Shown here in pieces: positions 3,237-27,195 of a stretch of 28,419 bases of DNA. The DNA comes from Chiloscyllium plagiosum (lineage: Eukaryota): NCBI RefSeq assembly GCF_004010195.1, contig NC_057755.1:12756142-12784560 (forward strand), in the 5' to 3' direction. Position 1 is the stretch's first letter. Each line of letters begins with the position of its first letter. Made by a program: the position numbers and the translations under genes. The notes under the pieces were generated by a model. The model saw only the letters and a program-made list of their open reading frames with translations. It had not been told where the DNA came from and made no database searches.

Positions 3237-5612
3237 ACAGAGTAAAGATTTTGTGGTCAAGATCGGGACGTCTCCGATCGGGTGTATAAGATTCTGAAAG
3301 GGGAGGGCGAACAGCCAGAAATCGTGTTACATATTGGCACCAATGATATAGCCAGGAAAAGGATTGAGGATATAAAAAGTGATTTCAGGGAGTTAGGGTG
3401 GAAGCTGCAGAGCAGGACGAACAGAGTAGTGTTCTCGGGTTTACTACCGGTGCGAAGCGAGGAACAGGGAGCGGGTGCAGCTTAACAGGTGGCTGCGCAG
3501 CTGGAGTAGGAGGGAGAGCTTCAGATATGTAGATAATTGGGATGCCTTCTGGGGAAGGTGGGTCCTGTACAAGAAGGACGGGTTGCACCTGAACTGGAAG
3601 GGGACCAATGTCCTGGGTGGAAGGTTTGCTCGAGTGGTTCAGGAGGGTTTAAACTAGTATCGCAGGGGGATGGGAACCTGAACTATATACCAGTGTGAGA
3701 GTTGATGCAGATGAGGCAATAGCAAGAGGTAGCGCAGCCAGTGGGAAGGAATTTCCTGGGAAAGAACCAAGGGATCGGTTAAAGTGTGTTTGTTTTAATG
3801 CAAGGAGTATCAGGAATAAAAGTAATGAGCTTAGAGCATGGATCAGTACCTGGTGCTATGATGTTGTGGCCATAACAGAGATGTGGATTTCTCAGGGGCA
3901 GGAATGGTTGCTGGATGTTCCAGAGTTTAGACCATTTAAAAAGAATAGGGAGGGGAGAAAAAGAGGAGGGGGTGTAGCACTGCTAATCAGAGAGGGTATC
4001 ACAGCTACAGAAGTTACCATTGTCAGGGAGGGTCTGCCTATTGAGTCAGTATGGGTGGANNNNNNNNNNNNNNNNNNNNNNNNNNNNNNNNNNNNNNNNN
4101 NNNNNNNNNNNNNNNNNNNNNNNNNNNNNNNNNNNNNNNNNNNNNNNNNNNNNNNNNNNNNNNNNNNNNNNNNNNNNNNNNNNNNNNNNNNNNNNNNNNN
4201 NNNNNNNNNNNNNNNNNNNNNNNNNNNNNNNNNNNNNNNNNNNNNNNNNNNNNNNNNNNNNNNNNNNNNNNNNNNNNNNNNNNNNNNNNNNNNNNNNNNN
4301 NNNNNNNNNNNNNNNNNNNNNNNNNNNNNNNNNNNNNNNNNNNNNNNNNNNNNNNNNNNNNNNNNNNNNNNNNNNNNNNNNNNNNNNNNNNNNNNNNNNN
4401 NNNNNNNNNNNNNNNNNNNNNNNNNNNNNNNNNNNNNNNNNNNNNNNNNNNNNNNNNNNNNNNNNNNNNNNNNNNNNNNNNNNNNNNNNNNNNNNNNNNN
4501 NNNNNNNNNNNNNNNNNNNNNNNNNNNNNNNNNNNNNNNNNNNNNNNNNNNNNNNNNNNCTCCTGCATCTATTGTCTACTGTCTATTGTCTATTAAGTCA
4601 GTGGTGAGTGGTGTTCCACAGGGCTCTGTCCTTGGGACTCTACTGTTTGTAATTTTTATTAATGACTTGGATGAGGAGATTGAAGGATGGGTTAGCAAGA
4701 TTGCAGATGACACAAAGGTTGGAGGTGTCAAAGGTTGACAGTATTGAGGACTGTTGTAGGCTGCAGCGTGGCATTGACAGGATGTAGACATGGGTTGAGA
4801 GGTGGCAGATGGAGTTTAACCTGGATAAGTGCAAAGTGATGCATGTTGGAAGGTCGAACTTGAAAGTTGAGTACAGGATTAAAGACAGGATTCTTGGCAG
4901 TGTGGAGGAACAGCTGGATCTTGGTGTGCAGGTATATAGATCCCTTAAAATTGCCACCCAAGTGGACAGGGTTGTGAAGAAAGCATATGGTGTTTTGGCT
5001 TTCATTAACAGGGGGATTGAGTTTAAGAGCCGTGAGATCTTGTTGCAGCTCTATAAAACTTTGGTTAGACCGCATTTGGAATACTGTGTCCAGTTCTGGT
5101 CGCCCTATTATAGGAAAGATGTGGATGCTTTGGAGAGGGTTCAGAGGAGGTTTACCCCGATGTTGCCTGGAATGGAGGGCTTATCTTACGAAGAGAGGTT
5201 GACTGAGCTCGGACCTTTTTCTTTGGAAAAAAGAAGGAAGAGAGGGGACCAAATTGAGGTGTACAAGATAATGAGAGGCATAGATAGAGTTGATAGCCAG
5301 AGACCTTTTCCCAGGGCAGAAATTGGTAACACGAGGAGTCATAGTTTTATGCTGTTTGGCGGAAAGTATAGAGGGGATGTCAAAGGCGGGTTCTTTACGC
5401 AGAGAGTTGTGAGAGCATGGAATGCGTTGCCAGCAGCAGTTGTGGAAGCAAGGTCATTGCGGATATTTAATAGACTGTTGGACTTGCATACGGTCACAGA
5501 AATTTGAGGGTTTGTACATTAGGTTTACCTTACATGAGGATCAATGGTTGGCACAACATTGTGGGCTGAAGGGCCTGTTCTGTGCTGTACTGTTCTATGT
5601 TTTATGTTCTAA
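3237..5612 (+). mobile_element. CR1 LINE (ORF1 esterase, ORF2 endonuclease, gap, RT and 3' UTR)
   Basis: IVLHIGTNDI and DGLHLN esterase motifs; CFNARSIRNK..DVVAITE endonuclease; [10 protein letters not shown] and KIADDTK RT motifs; ORF 4809-5507; ttcta-repeat 3' terminus. Continuity across the gap is assumed. Confidence 0.9.
4060..4559. other. Assembly gap (500 N)
   Basis: Run of n. Confidence 1.
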
Positions 5613-8820: not shown

Positions 8821-9007
8821 AGGATATAGCACAATGTTGTAAGATATATCATACATTCTAAATGTATAACATACAATCTATCCAGCACCTTTAGTACCGA
8901 TACTGGTTTTTGTAGAAGCATCCAGTAGGGTGATGGTAGACTGTCAAGGATCATTATCAGAAAATGAAAGCACATCACCAGTGCATCCTTACCATTATGG
9001 ATATGAC

Positions 9008-9212
9008 CTGAAAATGTGTTCATGGAAAGGCGCAGCAGGTCAGGCAGCATCCAAGGAGCAGGAGAATCAATGTTTCGGGCATGAGCCCTTCCTGAAGAAG
9101 GGCTCATGCCCGAAGCGCTTCACAGGAGGCTCCCAAGCACTGAGGATGTCACCTAGACAGGGGACGAAATGTCTGCAAGACAAATGCCCAGCTCAGCGAA
9201 CAGAACCACAAC
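9008..9212. mobile_element. Chimeric PLE junction: family-1 half (9008-9114) fused to family-2 half (9112-9212); left inversion breakpoint
   Basis: Family-1 terminus with an 18-bp inverted repeat, followed by sequence nearly identical to ~11202-11306. Confidence 0.85.
9135..9178 (+). ncRNA. Minimal type-I hammerhead ribozyme motif (PLE family 2)
   Basis: gca-CTGAGGA-t-[gtcacct agac aggggac]-GAAA-t-GTC-tgc; 3-bp stem I; one probable CpG-decay change. Confidence 0.6.
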
Positions 9213-9370
9213 AACATTCAGGGATGTTTGACCTTTTAGAAAGATAGGAGGCATGGAAAGGTGATGGGGTAGCACTATTAATAAGAGATGAAATGAAGAC
9301 TGTTGTGAGAGATAAGCTAGGATTGGATGATGCTGATCTATTTGGGTGAAAGTAAAAAGCAGAAAATGAA
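9213..9370 (+). mobile_element. CR1 endonuclease fragment (continuation of 11342-11600(-), displaced by inversion)
   Basis: NIQG..FRKDR..GKGDGVALLIRD remnant. Confidence 0.75.
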
Positions 9371-9429
9371 TGAAGATATTGATCGAAAAAAAAATACTCC
9401 TTTTAACAACTCTTTCAACTTGCGTGGAA

Positions 9430-9938
9430 CTTGTTGTTGTGAAACTTGAAAGGGTTCAGAAAAAATTTACAAGGATGTTGCCAGGGTTGGAGAATTTGAG
9501 CTATAGGGAGAGGCTGAACAGGCTAGGGCTGTTTTCCCTGGAGCGTCGGAGGCTGAGGGGTGACCTTTTAGAGGTTTATAAAATCATGAGGGGTATGGAT
9601 AGGATAACTAGACAAAGTTTTTTCCCTGGGGTGGGAGAGTCCAGAACTAGAGGGCATATGTTTAGGGTGAGAGGGGAAAGATATAAAAGAGACCTTAAGG
9701 GGCAACTTTTTCACACAGAGGGTGGTACATGTATGGAATGAGCTGCCAGAGGTAGTGGTGAAGGCTGGTACAATTGCAACATTTAAAAGGCATCTGGATG
9801 GATATATGAATAGGAAGGGTTTGGAGGGATATGGACCAGGTGCTGGCAGGTGGAACTAGATTTTGTTGGAATATCTGGTCAGCATGGACAAGTTGGACCG
9901 AAAGGTCTGTTTTTTGCTGTACATCTTTATGACTCTAT
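9430..9938 (+). mobile_element. CR1 LINE 3' end
   Basis: [42 protein letters not shown]; tail ctttatgactctat. Confidence 0.9.
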
Positions 9939-10082
9939 ATTAACATGGTATAACTGATCTTTCTTCCTTTGATATAGAGTGTCCATCAGATAATTCACTT
10001 CACTGACCTTCTTAATTACCTTATATAGACCACTGAATCTTGTCTTCAGATTTTCCTCCTGTAAAGGTAACAATACTAACAG
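9939..10082 (-). mobile_element. Gypsy LTR-retrotransposon integrase C-terminal (GPY/F) fragment
   Basis: LVLLPLQEENLKTRFSGLYKVIKKVSEVNYLMDT...YHVN resembles the consensus VLLP....L.ARF.GPY.I....SEVNY.....HVN. Confidence 0.7.
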
Positions 10083-10375
10083 GTCACAGTCTAAGGATAC
10101 AGGATAGGCCATTCAGGACTGAGTTGAAGTTTCTTCATCCAGAAAGTGGTGAGCCTGTGGAATTCTCTACCACAGAAAGCAGTTGAGGCCAAAACATTGA
10201 ATGTTTTCAAGAAGGAGTTAATATAGTTCTTAGGGCTAAAAGGATCAAAGGGTATGGGGAAAAAGTGGGGACAGGGTACTGGGCTGGATGATCAGCCATG
10301 ATAATATTGAATGACACAGCAGACACAAAGTGTCGAATTACCTACTCCTGCTCCTGTTTTCTATGTTTCTATGCT
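10082..10375 (+). mobile_element. CR1 LINE 3' end
   Basis: VVSLWNSLPQKAVEA remnant and ttctatgtttctatg tail. Confidence 0.8.
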
Positions 10376-10977
10376 TAACCCCACATCTCTGGCTTGAAAT
10401 GTTCTGCTATCTGCATCCCTACTTGCCCATTCTTTCATCTCTGCCTGTGAAGTTTTTAAAAATTCCTGTCTTCTTTGTAAACTCCTGCCAGTCTCTCTAG
10501 AAACACAGACAAATGATCTAACATTCATCTTCCTGTTCTAAAAGCTTATTATGAACCTCTTATCTCATGACCATAAATTAATTTGAATGGATTGAACCCC
10601 GTAGATTCATTTGCCAAATCACTGGTAGCAAATAACAGAAAAACTGACCTTTGCCCTATTCAAAGGAATCTTCATGACAATGTGCTTTCATCATTGTCTT
10701 GAGAATCTGATTGCGTATCTTTAACGCCTTCCCTGTGTTTGTCGATGATATGCTATAGATGTTAACTATTTTCTTTCCAAGTTAGTCAATATATCTTGAA
10801 AAAAAAGTTAGATACAGATTTGGACCCTTGATCTGACTGCATTTCATAATACATAATAATCTGACTGATAGTTCATATTAAGTAAAAACAATTGAGTAGT
10901 TTTATTCATCACTACTGTAGCTGTGATTGCCCTCAAATGGATGGCCTTTTAGAACCAAGGTGTCATATCCATAATGG

Positions 10978-11341
10978 AGGAGAAAGTGAGGACTGCAGAT
11001 GCTGAAGATCAGAGCTGAAAATGTGTACAAGCCAAACACAGAACAGCCAGGGAATTCCTAGAGGCATGGCACTCATCCACAGATTCAATCAAGAAGCACA
11101 TCGACCTGGACCCAATATACCGGCCACTGCAGCGGACAGCTGGAACTGACAACCGGAAGCGGCAGATACAAATCACTATAAATGCCGGAGGAAACATCAC
11201 AGAAGCGCTTCACAGGAGACTCCCAAGCACTGAGGGTGTCACCTAGACAGGGGACAAAACATCTGCAACACAAATGCCCAGCTTGGCGAATAGAACCACA
11301 ACAACGAGCACCCAAGCTACAAATCTTTTCACAAACTTTGA
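10978..11341. mobile_element. Chimeric PLE junction: family-1 terminus (10978-11026) fused to Poseidon-type family-2 3' end (11027-11341); right inversion breakpoint
   Basis: QAKHRTAREFLEAWHSSTDSIKKHIDLDPIY endonuclease C-terminus; degenerate hammerhead core at 11230-11259. Confidence 0.85.
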
Positions 11342-11715
11342 ATCCCTGAATGTTAAGTCGCCATTTTGATCACCTTGTAACCATACCTCTGTAATGGCTG
11401 TGAGATCATATTCATCTACTTCAATTTGTGCTGTGAGTTTGTCTACCCTATTCTGAAAGCTTTATGCGTAAAGATATGAAGCCTTCAACTTTGTTCTATT
11501 ATCACATTTCTCTACACTCTAATGGTTCTTTGGTGCAATTTGACATTCAAGCATTCTGTCCCTTCCTTCTATTTTTTGGGTACAATCAGCACCATCACTA
11601 ATGCACTCTATGAATTTGTTGCCATAGCTACCTTTCTAATTTGATTAACCCAATCAACATGAAGATTAAAGTTACCCATAATTATTGCACTGTTCTTTTT
11701 AAATTCTCCAACTGT
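11342..11715 (-). mobile_element. CR1 endonuclease fragments
   Basis: DEYDLTAITEVWLQGDQ...NIQG, and SAIIMGNFNLHVDW, on the minus strand. Confidence 0.75.
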
Positions 11716-14530: not shown

Positions 14531-14696
14531 AACAATTCAAGGAATAAGGATTTAAACTCAGTAACAACCATGGCAGTCTATTTAACTGAATGAATTAATC
14601 CCATTGGTTTTAGGTGATGGCAAGCATTCATCAGGTACATGCCCTCCTCTCTAAATCAAACTGATGACAGATCTTTTTTTTTGTTTTGCTACAAAC

Positions 14697-14847
14697 CTTT
14701 CGTTTTGCATTCAAATGCTCACTATATCTTTCTGTTGAGTCTCCGGGTATTTCGCTGGCCCACAGTGTTTTTCCCACCTTTGTATAGGCGACTCCCATCA
14801 CAATCAATGGTAAGAGGTACGTCAGTATAATCACCACAAGTTGATAT
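14697..14847 (-). CDS. TACR2: Tachykinin (neurokinin) receptor, internal coding exon 3 (TM5 and third intracellular loop); TACR2/substance-K receptor favoured, TACR1/TACR3 not excluded
   Basis: Minus-strand translation YQLVVIILTYLLPLIVMGVAYTKVGKTLWASEIPGDSTERYSEHLNAKRK matches the tachykinin receptor pattern Y..PL..M..AY..VG.TLW..EIPGD....AKRK. Acceptor ttgtgtcttccag|A TAT and donor AAG|GTTTGT; 151 nt = 1 nt + 50 codons, the usual exon-3 phasing. Family confidence is high; paralog confidence is about 0.65. Confidence 0.92.
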
Positions 14848-15208
14848 CTGGAAGACACAACGATCGATAATGCAATTTGTACATATTCAAAAAATATTCA
14901 AAGAAATTCCATAAAAGGAACGGTTTTGTTTATTCTACATGAAAACATAATACTAGAGGAATGTGAACTCTGTAAAATCCAAAATATAAAGCTAGTCTCA
15001 GTAACAGTTGTTAAACACCAGAGGTTAAAGGACTGAGTTTGGGCATACATTTTTCCATCTATAGGCCAGTGAGTTTAACATCTGGCTTTGGGGAATCGTT
15101 TGTCTATTATAAAGAATGCAATCACAATATATTTAGAAATACATAATATGATCAAGCAGAGTTGAAAAGACTTTGTGAAGGGGAAATTGTCTGATCAATT
15201 TACTAGAA

Positions 15209-18200
15209 TGAAACAAAGAACTGCAGGTGCTGGAGATCTCGAACTAAACAGAAATTACTCGGAAACTCAGTAGGTCTGGCAGCATCTGTGGAAAGAAACT
15301 AGTTTGAGTTTTGAGTCTGTTGACTCTATCAGGACTGTTAGATACTCTGGAACCTCCCTCCCCTAGCTTTTACTCTGACTCCATCCCTTCTCCTGACCCC
15401 AAATCTTGTTAGATATTTACTATCCCTGCAGCTCTCTGATGCTGAATGTTTTGTACTCAGCAAAGGGCTCAGTTTTATCCCTCTGTGCCCCCACCTCAAT
15501 GAATTTCAGGCTGGACATGACATTGAACACTTCTTCCATCATCAACTCCCCCCCCCCCACCATGCCCATTTCTGTGGACAGGGGACCTCCCCCTGCCATC
15601 CCACAGACACTTTCACTTGCCTTCAATGCTCTCCTTTGACGGTACTGTGCCTTTAAGAGAGATTTGTTCTGTGCTGTTTCTCTTGCAGAGAGGTGTTGCC
15701 ACAGTGGTACTGAATATCTGCTTCAAAAGCAATGGGTAAACAGCTTTGAGCTCCCTGAGTGCTTTTTTAGATTAAACAATAGAAGCATGAGTGGATGGAG
15801 GTAAAAGTCAGGCTCACACAGACCTAGGGTTTTAACTGTGCTTTCAGTTGGGATTTGTTGAAGCTAATAAATAGAGCTCTCTTTCTACTGCAGCTAAAAG
15901 CTTGAGTTCACCTCTGCTGCTAGATTGTTTCTTTTGGTGTTTCTTTCTCCCAGACTGTAGACGTGATAGCACATGAGGAAAAATTGTTTTCTAGATTTGC
16001 CTCTGCCAAGAGTGTGTTTAGGGGATGTTGCTTATTGGGACAGTTGATGATTAGTCATTAAATAATGTATTATTAAGTATTTTAACAGAGTCAAAGTTTT
16101 TATTCATTTGTATTTTAATTGTGATATAACAGTATTGTGTGTTTTTCTTAAAGCCTACTAGTGGACCAGTCGAATCAGATCTGGAACACAGCATCCTACA
16201 CTTGCTTTTAATTAGAAGTTAGGATCTAAGCAATCTCCTTGATATTTTGAGGGAGTGTCGTCTGGTCCATAACAGTCCATCCACTGGGATATCCCCCCTC
16301 CCTGACCTTTTTACCCACACTCAACTTACTCATTGAGAACTGTCGACGTGACATCAGTCACTTTAATTTTTCTGTCCCCTTCACCCATTCAAAACTCTCT
16401 CTCTCTGAACTGACTGCACTCCATGTTCTTCGGTCCAATCCTGACTTTGTCATCAAACCTGCCAACAAGGGTGGTGCAGTTGTTGTCTGGCATATTGGCC
16501 ACTACGTTGTGGAAGCTGAGCTCCAGTTCTCAAATACTTGCTGCTACCACCCCACCATGACCCCACCATGGTATACCAGGCTTTTGTGTCCATGACTGTC
16601 ATCACCCTCACCTCATCTGGGATCCCCCCATGACAGCCTCCTAGCTCATAGTCCCCCAAACCCATACAACCCACTCTACTTTCTCCCTAAAATCCAGAAA
16701 CAGAACTACCTGGGTAGAGCTGCTGTTTCTGCCTGCTCTTGCCCCTCTTCTTACTTTGACTTGATCTTTTTTCCTCCCCTTGTCCTGTCCTTCCCCACTT
16801 ACATTCACAATTCTCCTGATGCTTTATGTCAGTTTCAGAATTTTCAGTTTGTGGGCTCCAGCCTCCTCCTCTTTGCCATGGATGTGCAGTACCTTTGCAC
16901 CCAGGTTGGTCTCCAGGCTCTCTGCTTTGTCCTGGAAAAAGCTTGAATTATCCCCATCCACCACCAGCCTCCTCTGCCTGGCTAAGTTGTCATCACTTTG
17001 AACAAATTCTCCTTTAACTACTCCCACTTTTTTCAGGTGAAACGGTCATCCTGGATACTTGCATGGGCCCCAGTTATGCATACCTCTTTTAGGGGTATGT
17101 GCAACATTCCTTGTTCTAGTCCTATTCCAGCTCCTGTCCATGATTCTTTCTTCGATACATTGATGACACCATCGGTGCTGCATCCCTCTCTTGTTGGACT
17201 GGAAATATTTCACAATTTTGCTTCCAAATTCCACCTTGCCCTCACCTTCAACTGGTCCATCTCCAACTCCTCCTTTCCCTTTCTCAACATCTGTGTTTCC
17301 ATTTCTGGGCTGACCACCAATATCCATTATAAGTCCATCAATTCCCAAAACTACCTTGACTATACATCCTCTCATCCTACTTCCTGTAAGGTCTCCATCC
17401 CATTCTCTAGTTCCTCCATCTCCAATGCATCTGTTCCGATGATGTCAGTTTCAACAAGGCGGCCTCCGAAATGTCCACCTCCATTCTCAACCAAGGATTT
17501 ACCACCATCGTGTTTGACAGGGCCCCCAGCTGTGTCTCATCCATCTCCCGAACTTTGGCCCTGACCCCCTCTGTCCCCTCCCACAACAGCAGAAAAGTCT
17601 CCCTGGTCCTCACTTTCTACCCTCCCAGCTTCCACATCCAGAGGATTGTAAGTCATAATTTCCACCACCTCCAGCGAGATCCCACCATCAGACACATATT
17701 CCTTTCCCCTCCCTGGTCAGCCTTCTGCGGGCACTGTTCCCTCTGGGACACTCTGGTCCACTCCTCTCCACGCTCCTACAGTATCTTCCCATGCAATCAC
17801 AGGAGGTGTAACACCTGCCCATTTACTTTCTCTCAACTCACCATCCAGACACACCTTCCAGGTGAAACAGTGATTTACCTGCACAGTCTACTGTATTCAC
17901 TACTCTACACTGGGGGGACAAAGCACAGTTTGGGTGACTGATCTGCAGGACATCTGTCAGTAAAAATGAGCCAGAGCTTCCAGTCACCTGTCATTTCAAC
18001 AGACCACCTGGTTCCCTATCTCAGGCTTGCTGCAATGTTCCAGCGAGCATTAACACAAGCCCAAAGAACAATGTCTCATTTTCAGCTTGAGGATCCTGCA
18101 GCCTCTGGGCTCCAATATCAAGTTCAATCACTTAGAACCTGATTGCACTATTCCATGTTTGTTACTCACCCTCATATCCAGTCCTATTATGACATTGGTT

Positions 18201-18815: not shown

Positions 18816-20400
18816 TCATAGAGTCAAGGAGATGTAGAGCACGGAAACAGACACATTGGTCGAACTCGTCCATGCTGACCAGATATCCCAACTCAACCTA
18901 GTCCCAGCTGCCAGTACCTGACCCATATCCCTCCAAACCCTTCCTATTCATATAGCCATCCAGATGCCTTTTAAATGTTGCACAGTCTAGATTAGAGTGG
19001 TGCTGTAAAAGGACAGCAGATCAGGCAGCATCCGAAGAGAAGGAAAATCGACGTTTTGGGCAAAAGCCCTTTATCAGGAATGAGACAGGGAGCCTCCGGG
19101 TTGGAGAAATAAATGGGAGGGGGATGGGGCTGGGGAGAAGGTAGCCAAGAGTACAAAAGGTGGATGGAGGTGAGGATGAAGGTGATAGGTCGGAGAGGAG
19201 GGTGGACCAGATAGGTGGGAAGGAAGATTGGCAGGTAGGACAGGTCATGAGGATGGTGCTGAACTGGCAGATTGGAACTGGAGTAAGGTGGGGGGAAATG
19301 AGGAAACTGGTAAAGTCCGAGGCGGAAGATGAAGGGGTTCTTACTCCACGCGTCGGGTGGTGAGGAAGCGGGGGTGGAGGTGGCCAAGGACCTGCATGTC
19401 CTCGGCAGAATGGGAGGGAGAGTTGAAATGTTCGGCGACAGGGGTGGGGGGGTGGTTGATTGGTGCGGGTGTCCCGGAGATGTTCCCTAAAGTACTCTGC
19501 AAGCAGGCGTCCAGTCTCCCCAATGTAAAGGAGACCGCATCGAGAGCAACGGATACAATAAGTGACATCGGTGGATGTGCAGGTGAAACTTTGATGGATG
19601 TAGAAGGCTCCTTTGGGGCCTTGGATGGAGGTGACGGGGGCAAGTGTGGGCACAGATTTTGCAATTCCTGCGGTGGCAGGGGAAGGTGAAGGGCTTTTGC
19701 CCGAAACATTGATTTTCCTGCTCCTCAGATGCTGCTTGACCTGCCGTGCTTTTCCAGCACCACTCTCATCTGGACTCTCATCTCCAGCATCTGCAGTCCT
19801 CACTTTTGCCTTTTAAATGTTGCAATTGTACCAGCCTCCACCACTTTCTCTGGCAGCTTATTTCACACACGCACCACCCTCTGTGTGAAAACGTTGCCCC
19901 TTAAGTCTCTTTTATACTTTTCCCCTCTCACCCTGAACCTATACCTTCTAGTTCTGGACTCGCCCACCCCAAAGAAAAGACCTTCTCTATTTACCCTGTC
20001 CATGTCCCTCATGATTTTGTAAACCTCTATAAGGTCACCCCTCAGCCTCCGACGCTCCAAGGGAAACAGCCACAGCCTATTCAACTTCTTCCTATAACTC
20101 TCAAATCCTCCAATCCTGGCAAAATCCTTGTAAATCTTTTCTGAACCCTTTCAAGTTTCACAACATCAAGATAGGCAGGAGGGCAGAATTGCACGTAATA
20201 TTCCAACAGTGGCCTAACCAAGGTCCTGTACAGCCGCAACATGACCTCCCAACTCCTGTACTCTATACTCTGACCAATAAAGGCAAGCATACCAAACGCC
20301 TTCTTCACTATCCTACCACCTGCGACTCTACTTTCAAGGAACTATGAACCTGCATGCCAAGGTCTCTTTGTTTAGCAACTCTCCCTTAGGACCTTACCAT
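18816..20400 (-). mobile_element. CR1 3' part with nested PLE
   Basis: Tail atagagtca... at ~18817; ORFs 19863-20084(-) and 20081-20308(-) encode the CR1 ORF2 C-terminus. Confidence 0.85.
18987..19810 (-). mobile_element. PLE family 1 (Neptune type), truncated, with inverted terminus
   Basis: FTCTSTDVTYCIRCSRCGLLYIGETGRLLAEYFREHL (ORF 19021-19803(-)); tgccttttaaatgttgca duplicated at 18965-18982 and 19807-19824. Confidence 0.9.
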
Positions 20401-25962: not shown

Positions 25963-26478
25963 AAACAAATTCTGCCTTGATAAATCTGTTTTACGATAGA
26001 CTGTACACTGTCTATCATAGGTACTATTGATTTCACTTTGTTCTTGCTGTCAGTGCGTGAGATGTGAGCAAGTAAGAACAGATGTTTGTGTGTGAATTAA
26101 ATATAGCACTTAAGACAGTACAATCAGCAACTTAGAAATTGATGTTAATGCAAATGGGAATGGTTATTGCTGTTTCATTAATACATAGGGTATAGAGCAA
26201 ATATTAGAGAGCAAATAAGGGAGAAATGTTTCCTGTGCTAAAAGGGTCAGTATCAAGGGGACTCAGATTTAAGATAATTGACCAAACAGCCAGAGGCGAT
26301 GTGAGAACACAATGTCATATACAGGAAGATATTATATATAAACCTCTCTGCAGTGGCTCGAAGGGCCATGGAGGATGATCCAATAGTATTAGCTGATTAT
26401 GTGTTGGAGAACAAAAATCGGAGGGGTATGCAGAAAAACGAAGTGCAGTGAAGTGAAGTGGATTGTAGTACCAAATAG

Positions 26479-26600
26479 GAGAAAGTGAGAACTGCAGATG
26501 CTGGAGATTCCTGAAGAAGGGCTCATGCCCGAAACGTCAATTCTCCTGTTTCTTGGATGCTGCCTGACCTGCTGCGCTTTTCCAGAAACACATTTTCAGC
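26479..26600. mobile_element. 122-bp PLE family-1 mini-element with internal inversion and perfect 15-bp TSD
   Basis: TSD tgtagtaccaaatag at 26464-26478 and 26601-26615. Confidence 0.9.
26506..26543 (+). ncRNA. Minimal type-I hammerhead ribozyme motif, intact core
   Basis: CTGAAGA 26511-26517, a-[gggc tcat gccc], GAAA 26531-26534, C-GTC 26535-26538; stem I is weak. Confidence 0.62.
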
Positions 26601-26734: not shown

Positions 26735-27195
26735 CATGCAAGGTGCTACATTTTGGGAAAGCAAATCTCAGCAGGACTTATACACTTAATGGTAAGGTCC
26801 TAGGGAGTGTTGCTGAACAAAGAGACCTTGGAGTGCAGGTTCATAGCTCCTTGAAAGTGGAGTCGCAGGTAGATAGGATAGTGAAGAAGGTGTTTGGTAT
26901 GCTTTCCNNNNNNNNNNNNNNNNNNNNNNNNNNNNNNNNNNNNNNNNNNNNNNNNNNNNNNNNNNNNNNNNNNNNNNNNNNNNNNNNNNNNNNNNNNNNN
27001 NNNNNNNNNNNNNNNNNNNNNNNNNNNNNNNNNNNNNNNTTGAGAGGCATTTGGATGGGTATATGAATAGGAAGGGTTTGGAGGGATATGGGCCGGTGCT
27101 GGCAGGTGGGACTAGATTGGGTTGGGATATCTGGTCGGCATGAACGGGTTGGACCGAAGGGTCTGTTTCCATGCTGTACACCTCTATGACTCTAA
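26735..27195 (+). mobile_element. CR1 3' part spanning a gap
   Basis: VLHFGKAN..EQRDLGVQVHSSLKV; tail ctctatgactcta. Confidence 0.88.
26908..27039. other. Assembly gap (132 N)
   Basis: Run of n. Confidence 1.

Follow-up and report, generated by a model that had tools for sequence, protein, structure and literature searches.

An apparent 1.9-kb inversion with breakpoints inside two unrelated Penelope-like elements in a tachykinin receptor intron of Chiloscyllium plagiosum

Repeat content of the intron

The window, that is, the whole stretch of 28,419 nt of Chiloscyllium plagiosum DNA that was analysed, comes from a gapped assembly of 3.56 Gb. The features under study (Table 1) lie in an intron of a tachykinin receptor gene, bounded on one side by the TM5 exon and on the other by a TM6-7 exon 22.6 kb to the left of the window. 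The best matches of the TM5 exon were the substance-P receptor (E 1.6e-16) and the neuromedin-K receptor (E 2.1e-15), and the flanking exons bear out the location in a GPCR intron proposed in a preliminary description of this DNA. The inverted segment probably has no effect on its host, because it is entirely intronic, lies 3.3 kb from the nearest detected coding exon, and is made up of repeat remnants.

Table 1. Positions of the features in the window (PLE, Penelope-like element; TSD, target-site duplication)
Feature	Position	Strand	Remarks
Old unclassified repeat, left half (family-1 insertion target)	8882-9007		continuation reversed at 10424-10975
Family-1 TSD, outer copy	8992-9007	+	16 nt
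Family-1 inverted arm	9008-9091	-	84 nt; start point is that of intact copies
Family-1 hairpin centre with 26 nt from the start of the forward pLTR	9089-9114	+
Joint J1 (family 1/family 2)	9112-9114		3-nt microhomology GAA; 7/10 nt alike
Family-2 arm (in ancestral order, inverted 5' arm)	9112-9212	+	ends at usual arm position
Inverted segment	9115-11026		1912 nt (1915 nt with microhomology included); TSDs, PLE ends, CR1 and old repeat
Family-2 TSD, inner copy	9213-9225	+	13 nt
CR1-type endonuclease region, downstream half	9213-9381	+	decayed
Old repeat, right half	10424-10975		split at family-1 TSD
Family-1 TSD, inner copy	10962-10977	-	16 nt
Family-1 pLTR, final 49 nt	10978-11026	-	12-nt stem foot and 37-nt tail
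Joint J2 (family 1/family 2)	11026/11027		blunt, 0 nt shared
Family-2 forward copy	11027-11341	+	315 nt; GIY-YIG region end, pLTR, 36-39-nt tail
Family-2 TSD, outer copy	11342-11354	-	13 nt
CR1-type endonuclease region, upstream half	11342-11601	-
TM5 exon, host tachykinin receptor gene	14631-14897	minus	protein matches

Pieces of two PLE families were found at the ends of the inverted segment. In intact family-1 copies the inverted arm begins as at 9008 and the 3' end falls as at 10978, and the hairpin centre was the same in all of the other loci scored (39/39). Intact copies with the window's layout measured 210 nt in 8/29 cases, and the 54-nt spacing was kept in 19/29. The element in the window consists of the first 107 nt and the last 49 nt, 54 nt of the forward arm being absent, and its break lies 21-23 nt past the hairpin loop, not at the centre. 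Retention of the closed centre, followed by 26 nt of the forward arm, shows that joining of the element preceded the cut. A natural family-1 copy is predicted to fold with a stem of 84 bp (-111.4 kcal/mol, z -25.8). The family-1 piece has an inverted 5' copy beside a 5'-truncated forward copy, flanking TSDs, and a 37-nt tail, within the 30-40 nt expected of EN+ PLEs. A related family-1 copy, whose pLTR is ∼78% identical to the window piece, carries a CX2-5CxxC motif in an ORF at 19487-19765 and matched GIY-YIG PF01541 at 19021-19812 (E 0.0028, below the curated cut-off). By this linker motif rather than by a tree, the relative, a copy of another subfamily, fits Neptune; the one long family-1 copy that was read is mostly N.

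Family-2 copies share the 3' base of 11341, followed by the TSD, and their inverted arms end where 9212 corresponds. An inverted arm was present in 11/29 copies, 8 of which had an exact TSD of 10-13 nt, and the tail measured 36-38 nt in 8/11 copies and 36-39 nt in the window (30-40 nt expected). Family 2 forms a loose inverted repeat, its arms being 101 nt or more in length and separated by 175 nt or more, and its exchange point is its change of orientation. The 5' ends of family-2 copies are broadly spread in a search that selected copies containing the full 101 nt, and so give no reference length for any family-2 loss. One copy ends at the same 10-nt palindrome, but, set against that broad spread, the idea that the family-2 break marks a favoured 5' end of its RNA was rejected. 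The order of the two PLE pieces is not given by their divergence, because both are equally far from their family majorities (6/156 or 3.8% for family 1, 15/416 or 3.6% for family 2).

Matches of family-2 copies to PF01541 (E 0.01 and 0.044) fell under the curated cut-off; the window's own 75-aa piece gave no match to PF01541, and a 114-aa fragment (16251-16592), examined for the telomerase-related reverse transcriptase of EN+ PLEs, gave none in Pfam. According to PMC8557442, the Zn-finger-like motif CX2-5CxxC in the RT-EN linker is a criterion that separates PLE clades. No such motif occurs in the 80-aa stretch preceding the EN in two family-2 copies, a stretch partly out of frame, and by this test, rather than by a tree, family 2 fits Poseidon. 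The anatomy of both families agrees with that of canonical EN+ PLEs as described in PMC8557442 and PMC11167929 (a 5'-truncated copy, an adjacent inverted copy, and a tail of 30-40 nt), and differs from it only in the later rearrangement. When 8900-11500 was scanned with Rfam for the hammerhead ribozyme of the PLE pLTR, no hammerhead family gave a hit with an E value of 5 or less, and the scan yielded three weak chance matches overall. Minimal PLE hammerheads may have no Rfam model.

Exchanged duplications, chimeric joints, and ancestral order

Each TSD is present as an outer and an inner copy in inverted orientation. The family-1 copies are reverse complements at 16/16 positions and the family-2 copies at 13/13, and neither pair can be extended by a single base, so the two inverted repeats of the preliminary description are exact and maximal; both are located at PLE ends. 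Repeat length by itself is weak evidence, since the 1.467 Mb around the window contain 735 unique matches of 13-22 nt in inverted orientation at most 30 kb apart. The deciding evidence is position, as every TSD copy adjoins the exact PLE end where intact copies carry theirs. With 3 nt of slip allowed per side, the chance of inverted matches at these fixed sites is 2e-8 for family 1 and 9e-7 for family 2.

Both inner joints are family-1/family-2 chimeras, and the GAA microhomology noted earlier at J1 is present, while J2 shares 0 nt. The likeness at J1 (3 nt exact plus 7/10) occurred in 0.9% of 138,600 random family-1 by family-2 joins, and a 3-nt overlap alone in 5.7%. The J1 pattern was matched once in the genome. 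J2 was also found once, a second full-length match being absent among the 40 scored of 708 candidates, and the words that span it are nearly unique in the genome. As each joint is single in genome searches, the idea that the chimera is a mobile composite element was rejected. The exchange of TSDs and the chimeric structure of the joints are confirmed for the assembly as it reads.

The two halves of the CR1 endonuclease region abut in 6/7 intact paralogues, in a relative orientation opposite to that in the window and with the 13-nt TSD as their overlap; in the remaining paralogue collinearity is seen farther out. Among three paralogues of the old repeat, one carries both halves across the 16-nt TSD, with a 14-nt overlap. 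Because CR1 and old-repeat paralogues run in the un-flipped order, the assembled order is the derived one. Four independent markers in the assembled letters (the two TSDs, CR1, and the old repeat) set the ancestral order. Flipping the segment in silico had been said to restore three things together: direct TSDs and a collinear CR1 endonuclease are indeed obtained, but the family-1 element remains short by 54 nt. The chimeric joints and exchanged TSDs support the inversion that had been proposed, with its two breakpoints in PLEs of unrelated families.

Assembly survey and comparison with other animals

It is possible, though on balance doubtful, that the flip is an artefact in which a 1.9-kb contig ending in two PLEs was placed reversed and its gaps were dropped, which would also explain the 54-nt loss. 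Such an error would suit a gapped assembly, as the 1.467 Mb holds 67 runs of N (one of 3 N), 7 of which adjoin these PLE families, and inverted PLE structures often trouble short-read assemblies, according to Craig et al. (PMC8557442). It would also suit the position of all four inner ends in high-copy repeats, and the unique inner DNA has no second copy in the assembly. Neither joint, however, contains N, though a gap of 3 N was retained elsewhere. A repeat was present at 108/134 gap sides, where a median of 372 nt was read into the repeat and only 8/108 sides had 110 nt or less, as measured with the 1.467 Mb alone as library; three of the four inner ends here (107, 101, and 49 nt) are far below that usual stretch. 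Short family-1 elements were closed routinely, 29/49 young family-1 3' ends lying in short TSD-bounded elements without N, and the survey contained no flip with N joints and PLE ends. The J1 microhomology, rare among random joins, also argues against an artefact, and a seamless double mis-join is atypical of this assembly. When worked through by hand, no consistent k-mer size made all four ends contig tips.

In the same 1.467 Mb, 154 PLE 3' ends were found (137 of family 1), 67 of them with a direct TSD of at least 12 nt. The window pair was the only case of an inverted TSD adjoining a PLE piece. A scan for further inter-family chimera pairs, as envisaged in the preliminary description, returned this pair and no other among the 154 ends, a single case that lends no support to recurrence and counts against the reading preferred below. 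A scan for swapped TSDs of any family gave 92 loose candidates, which were taken together as chance background.

Independent contigs were compared from the same species (A) and from two relatives (B and C). Counted on unique pieces, A showed 3 differences in 2827 nt, and divergence was 2.3% for B and 3.4% for C. A contig was counted as bridging an edge only when it extended at least 31 nt past it. By this measure contigs from A bridged 9007/9008 (two runs) and 9212/9213 (one run) and reached 19-24 nt beyond the other two edges, and B bridged 9212/9213; at the 10978 edge the B contigs include 20 nt of family 1, and at the 11341 edge 24 nt of family 2. Contigs from C entered family 2 by 25 and 24 nt at its two edges, under the 31-nt bar. 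Another C contig, on 10527-10977, runs on for 43 letters that were not placed on family 1. This overhang has exactly the size of 8949-8991, and so placed it would overlap by 30 nt a C contig that ends at 8978. From the size of the overhang, not from its letters, we infer that the family-1 site is empty in C and that the order there is ancestral. On the evidence of C, family 2 likely existed before family 1 and before the flip. The outer-edge matches in A, B, and C do not confirm the inversion, because a flipped allele has the same outer edges as one that is not flipped; this, together with joints that come from one assembly, counts against the preferred reading.

The region around J2 (10950-11066) was examined in four runs, three from species-A samples of two studies and one from relative B. 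A locus-specific flank contig was present in 4/4 runs and reached 10996-11001, at depths of 3, 5.1, 14.8, and 6.3. Because the J2 words are nearly unique, a bridging contig of ∼53 nt or more was expected; none of the 32 pieces listed (45-58 nt), out of 32 + 23,169, crossed 11026/11027. Likewise, no crossing of J1 or J2 was seen among the pieces listed (at least 97 nt) in the wider comparison of A, B, and C. Such contigs can show presence, not absence, and two A runs have a filter-type hole with depth 0 at 10028, so the lack of J2-crossing pieces was not counted as evidence. It did, however, hold up the odds of an artefact or of a private allele, which would otherwise have been put lower. The inner joints are known from this assembly alone, and the inversion may possibly be private to the reference haplotype.

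Candidate mechanisms and known systems

The reading that we prefer, and for which we see the case as about evenly balanced, is a real post-insertion inversion in which both inverted-repeat PLE insertions broke and their ends were cross-joined by end joining. In this scheme family 2 would have entered an old CR1, generating the 13-nt TSD; its anatomy is visible in the window, and its precedence over family 1 would follow from relative C. Family 1 would then have landed at a distance of 1.9 kb, in the form of a complete 210-nt hairpin, with duplication of 16 nt of target, judging from intact copies. Both elements would later have broken, with hairpin or cruciform extrusion as the likely trigger, a proposal that is strong for family 1 but less so for family 2, where at least 175 nt separate the arms. 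At least 54 nt would have been lost, and the four ends would have been joined crosswise with 3 nt and 0 nt of microhomology, at the joints that appear in the assembly. The PLEs could have acted as passive fragile sites, and the breakage would need no PLE enzyme; the term PLE-driven mechanism used in the preliminary description is an overstatement, as nothing links PLE enzymes to the flip. Its suggestion that both elements broke at their centres and were cross-joined holds for the breakage and cross-joining that we prefer, but not for the centres, since family 1 broke off-centre and lost 54 nt. Several observations count against the preferred reading: reported palindrome breaks are central and that of family 1 misses the loop by 21-23 nt, family 2 is no tight palindrome, and J2 is blunt.

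An inversion coupled to family-1 insertion, in which target-primed ends joined a break in the older family 2, is unlikely in our judgment. It agrees with the order proposed above, family 2 first, and the 49-nt 3' piece is in the size range of naturally truncated family-1 ends. The biochemistry also allows it, as PMC11167929 describes a PLE protein that cleaves and extends both strands, with two RNA start sites, and the joining of distal breaks by L1 intermediates is reported in PMC13526784 and 10.1101/2024.08.27.596794. Against this, the left piece contains the hairpin centre, already closed and followed by 26 nt of the forward arm, which is the layout of finished copies, and the L1 twin-priming cases of 10.1101/2024.08.27.596794 exchange at the orientation change, whereas family 1 exchanged elsewhere. 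Two concurrent insertions of families 1 and 2, resolved crosswise, had been offered as GIY-YIG-initiated events in the preliminary description and are very improbable. The TSDs on the two sides of each bridge differ, a pattern also seen in the synchronous-L1 inversions of 10.1101/2024.08.27.596794, family 2 was exchanged just where its orientation changes, and both pieces are equally diverged from their majorities. Relative C, however, has family 2 at both edges and apparently, by the overhang, an empty family-1 site in the un-flipped order, which leaves this reading unsupported. The off-centre family-1 break and 54-nt loss speak against it as well, and in PMC13526784 L1 intermediates recombine best given extensive homology, which is absent between these families.

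Exchanged TSDs with chimeric elements are the usual signature of ordinary ectopic (homologous) recombination between inverted elements, as PMC2603318 and PMC2775673 have it. Here the joints belong to different families, share 3 and 0 nt, and are non-reciprocal, with 54 nt lost from family 1. The earlier view that this was not ordinary ectopic recombination therefore stands; given junction sequence without homology, we reject that process, unless the joints are misassembled. The Alu/L1 RRMI (PMC2603318) and Galileo (PMC2775673) events resemble the window in their chimeric elements at both breakpoints, exchanged TSDs, and kilobase size; they differ in that homologous copies within one family recombine, whereas the window joints unite unrelated families with 0-3 nt shared.

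The joining of two unrelated palindromes by NHEJ is an established route, palindrome-mediated translocation (PMC4940405). Like the PATRR translocations of humans described there, t(11;22) among them, the window event would combine inverted-repeat breaks, scant mutual homology, end joining, and small deletions. Unlike them, it is intrachromosomal, spans 1.9 kb, involves retroelement palindromes, and has no shown recurrence; its family-1 break is off-centre, and its family 2 is long-spacered. PATRRs are more than 90% AT in the same source, and the window elements have an ordinary GC content (43% in 9001-9500). PATRRs are also near-perfect palindromes, which a natural family-1 copy resembles; the family-2 arms are at least 101 nt with at least 175 nt between them.

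Synchronous L1 insertions yield reciprocal inversions with hetero-duplications (10.1101/2024.08.27.596794), and L1 intermediates join distal breaks (PMC13526784; 10.1101/2024.12.14.628481). The window shares with these synchronous or break-captured L1 inversions its retroelement bridges, two different target duplications, and twin-primed structure. The L1 events described there are somatic, insertion-coupled, and exchanged at the orientation switch; the window PLE insertions appear separate in time, and in family 1 the centre and the exchange point are 21-23 nt apart. Other transposable elements have also been linked to inversions (PMC9977147; PMC12910113). In the open-access literature we found no report of two PLE families joined by an inversion. 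Earlier studies reportedly place Penelope at breakpoints in the Drosophila virilis group. Each ingredient of the event is already known, and the case is single and intronic.

If the flip proves to be one of assembly, the locus is a warning for PLE-rich assemblies. If it is real, exchanged TSDs are no proof of ectopic recombination, and the fold-back shape of a PLE can be a fragile site long after insertion. We consider it a tentative and rather unlikely proposition that twin-primed PLE palindromes or insertion intermediates generate a class of homology-free germline inversions between unrelated elements; if they do, this locus would be the first sequence-resolved vertebrate example. A real inversion would also mean that hairpin-rich genomes have an unrecognised source of small inversions, one missed by searches for same-family inverted pairs. 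The 137 family-1 3' ends in 1.467 Mb extrapolate to some 10^5 genome-wide.

The hairpin centre of family 1

The centre of the family-1 hairpin (window 9089-9096; L034-L062 among other loci of the same assembly), at which the two halves meet through a 3-nt overlap, was the same in all 39 of the other scored loci, which include both orientations. Such a recurrent centre could represent a favoured annealing point of two cDNAs, or, as an alternative, it could derive from an amplified fold-back element. The window also contains a separate, intact family-1 fold-back insertion (see table).

Elsewhere on the window's contig, a pair of young family-1 3' pieces lies at G000:C46:12,310,570 (+) and 12,312,169 (-), with 1.6 kb between them and without a direct TSD. 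For the piece on the minus strand, a single inverted match of 15 nt occurs at a distance of 47 kb, without an adjoining PLE; this is probably due to chance.

A family-2 copy resembling the joints

At L217, a locus on another contig, the short piece of a family-2 copy stops at the same 10-nt palindrome as the inner family-1/family-2 joint at window 9112-9114, and its long arm begins 6 nt from the family-2 start at the other joint (11026/11027).

Features in the window and at locus L217
Feature	Position	Length	Detail
Assembly gap	window 4060-4559	500 N	within CR1 copy
Neptune-like PLE fragment	window 18965-19811		GIY-YIG match and linker cysteine motif
Intact family-1 fold-back insertion	window 26477-26598	122 nt	TSD 15 nt
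Assembly gap	window 26908-27039	132 N	within CR1 copy
Family-2 copy	L217:1360-1800 (G000:C30)		TSD 14 nt

Neighbouring CR1 sequence and the left flank

The Neptune-like PLE fragment is an insertion in a CR1 3' end, with a 16-nt direct repeat. The inverted segment also contains the 3' end of a younger CR1 (window 9430-9940), adjacent to the old CR1 endonuclease remnant. In relative B, a related animal (sequencing run X5), the left-flank contig aligned up to window 8979 and was followed by 30 unaligned letters (window 8980-9009); this animal may carry a further insertion, or a deletion, immediately ahead of the family-1 TSD.
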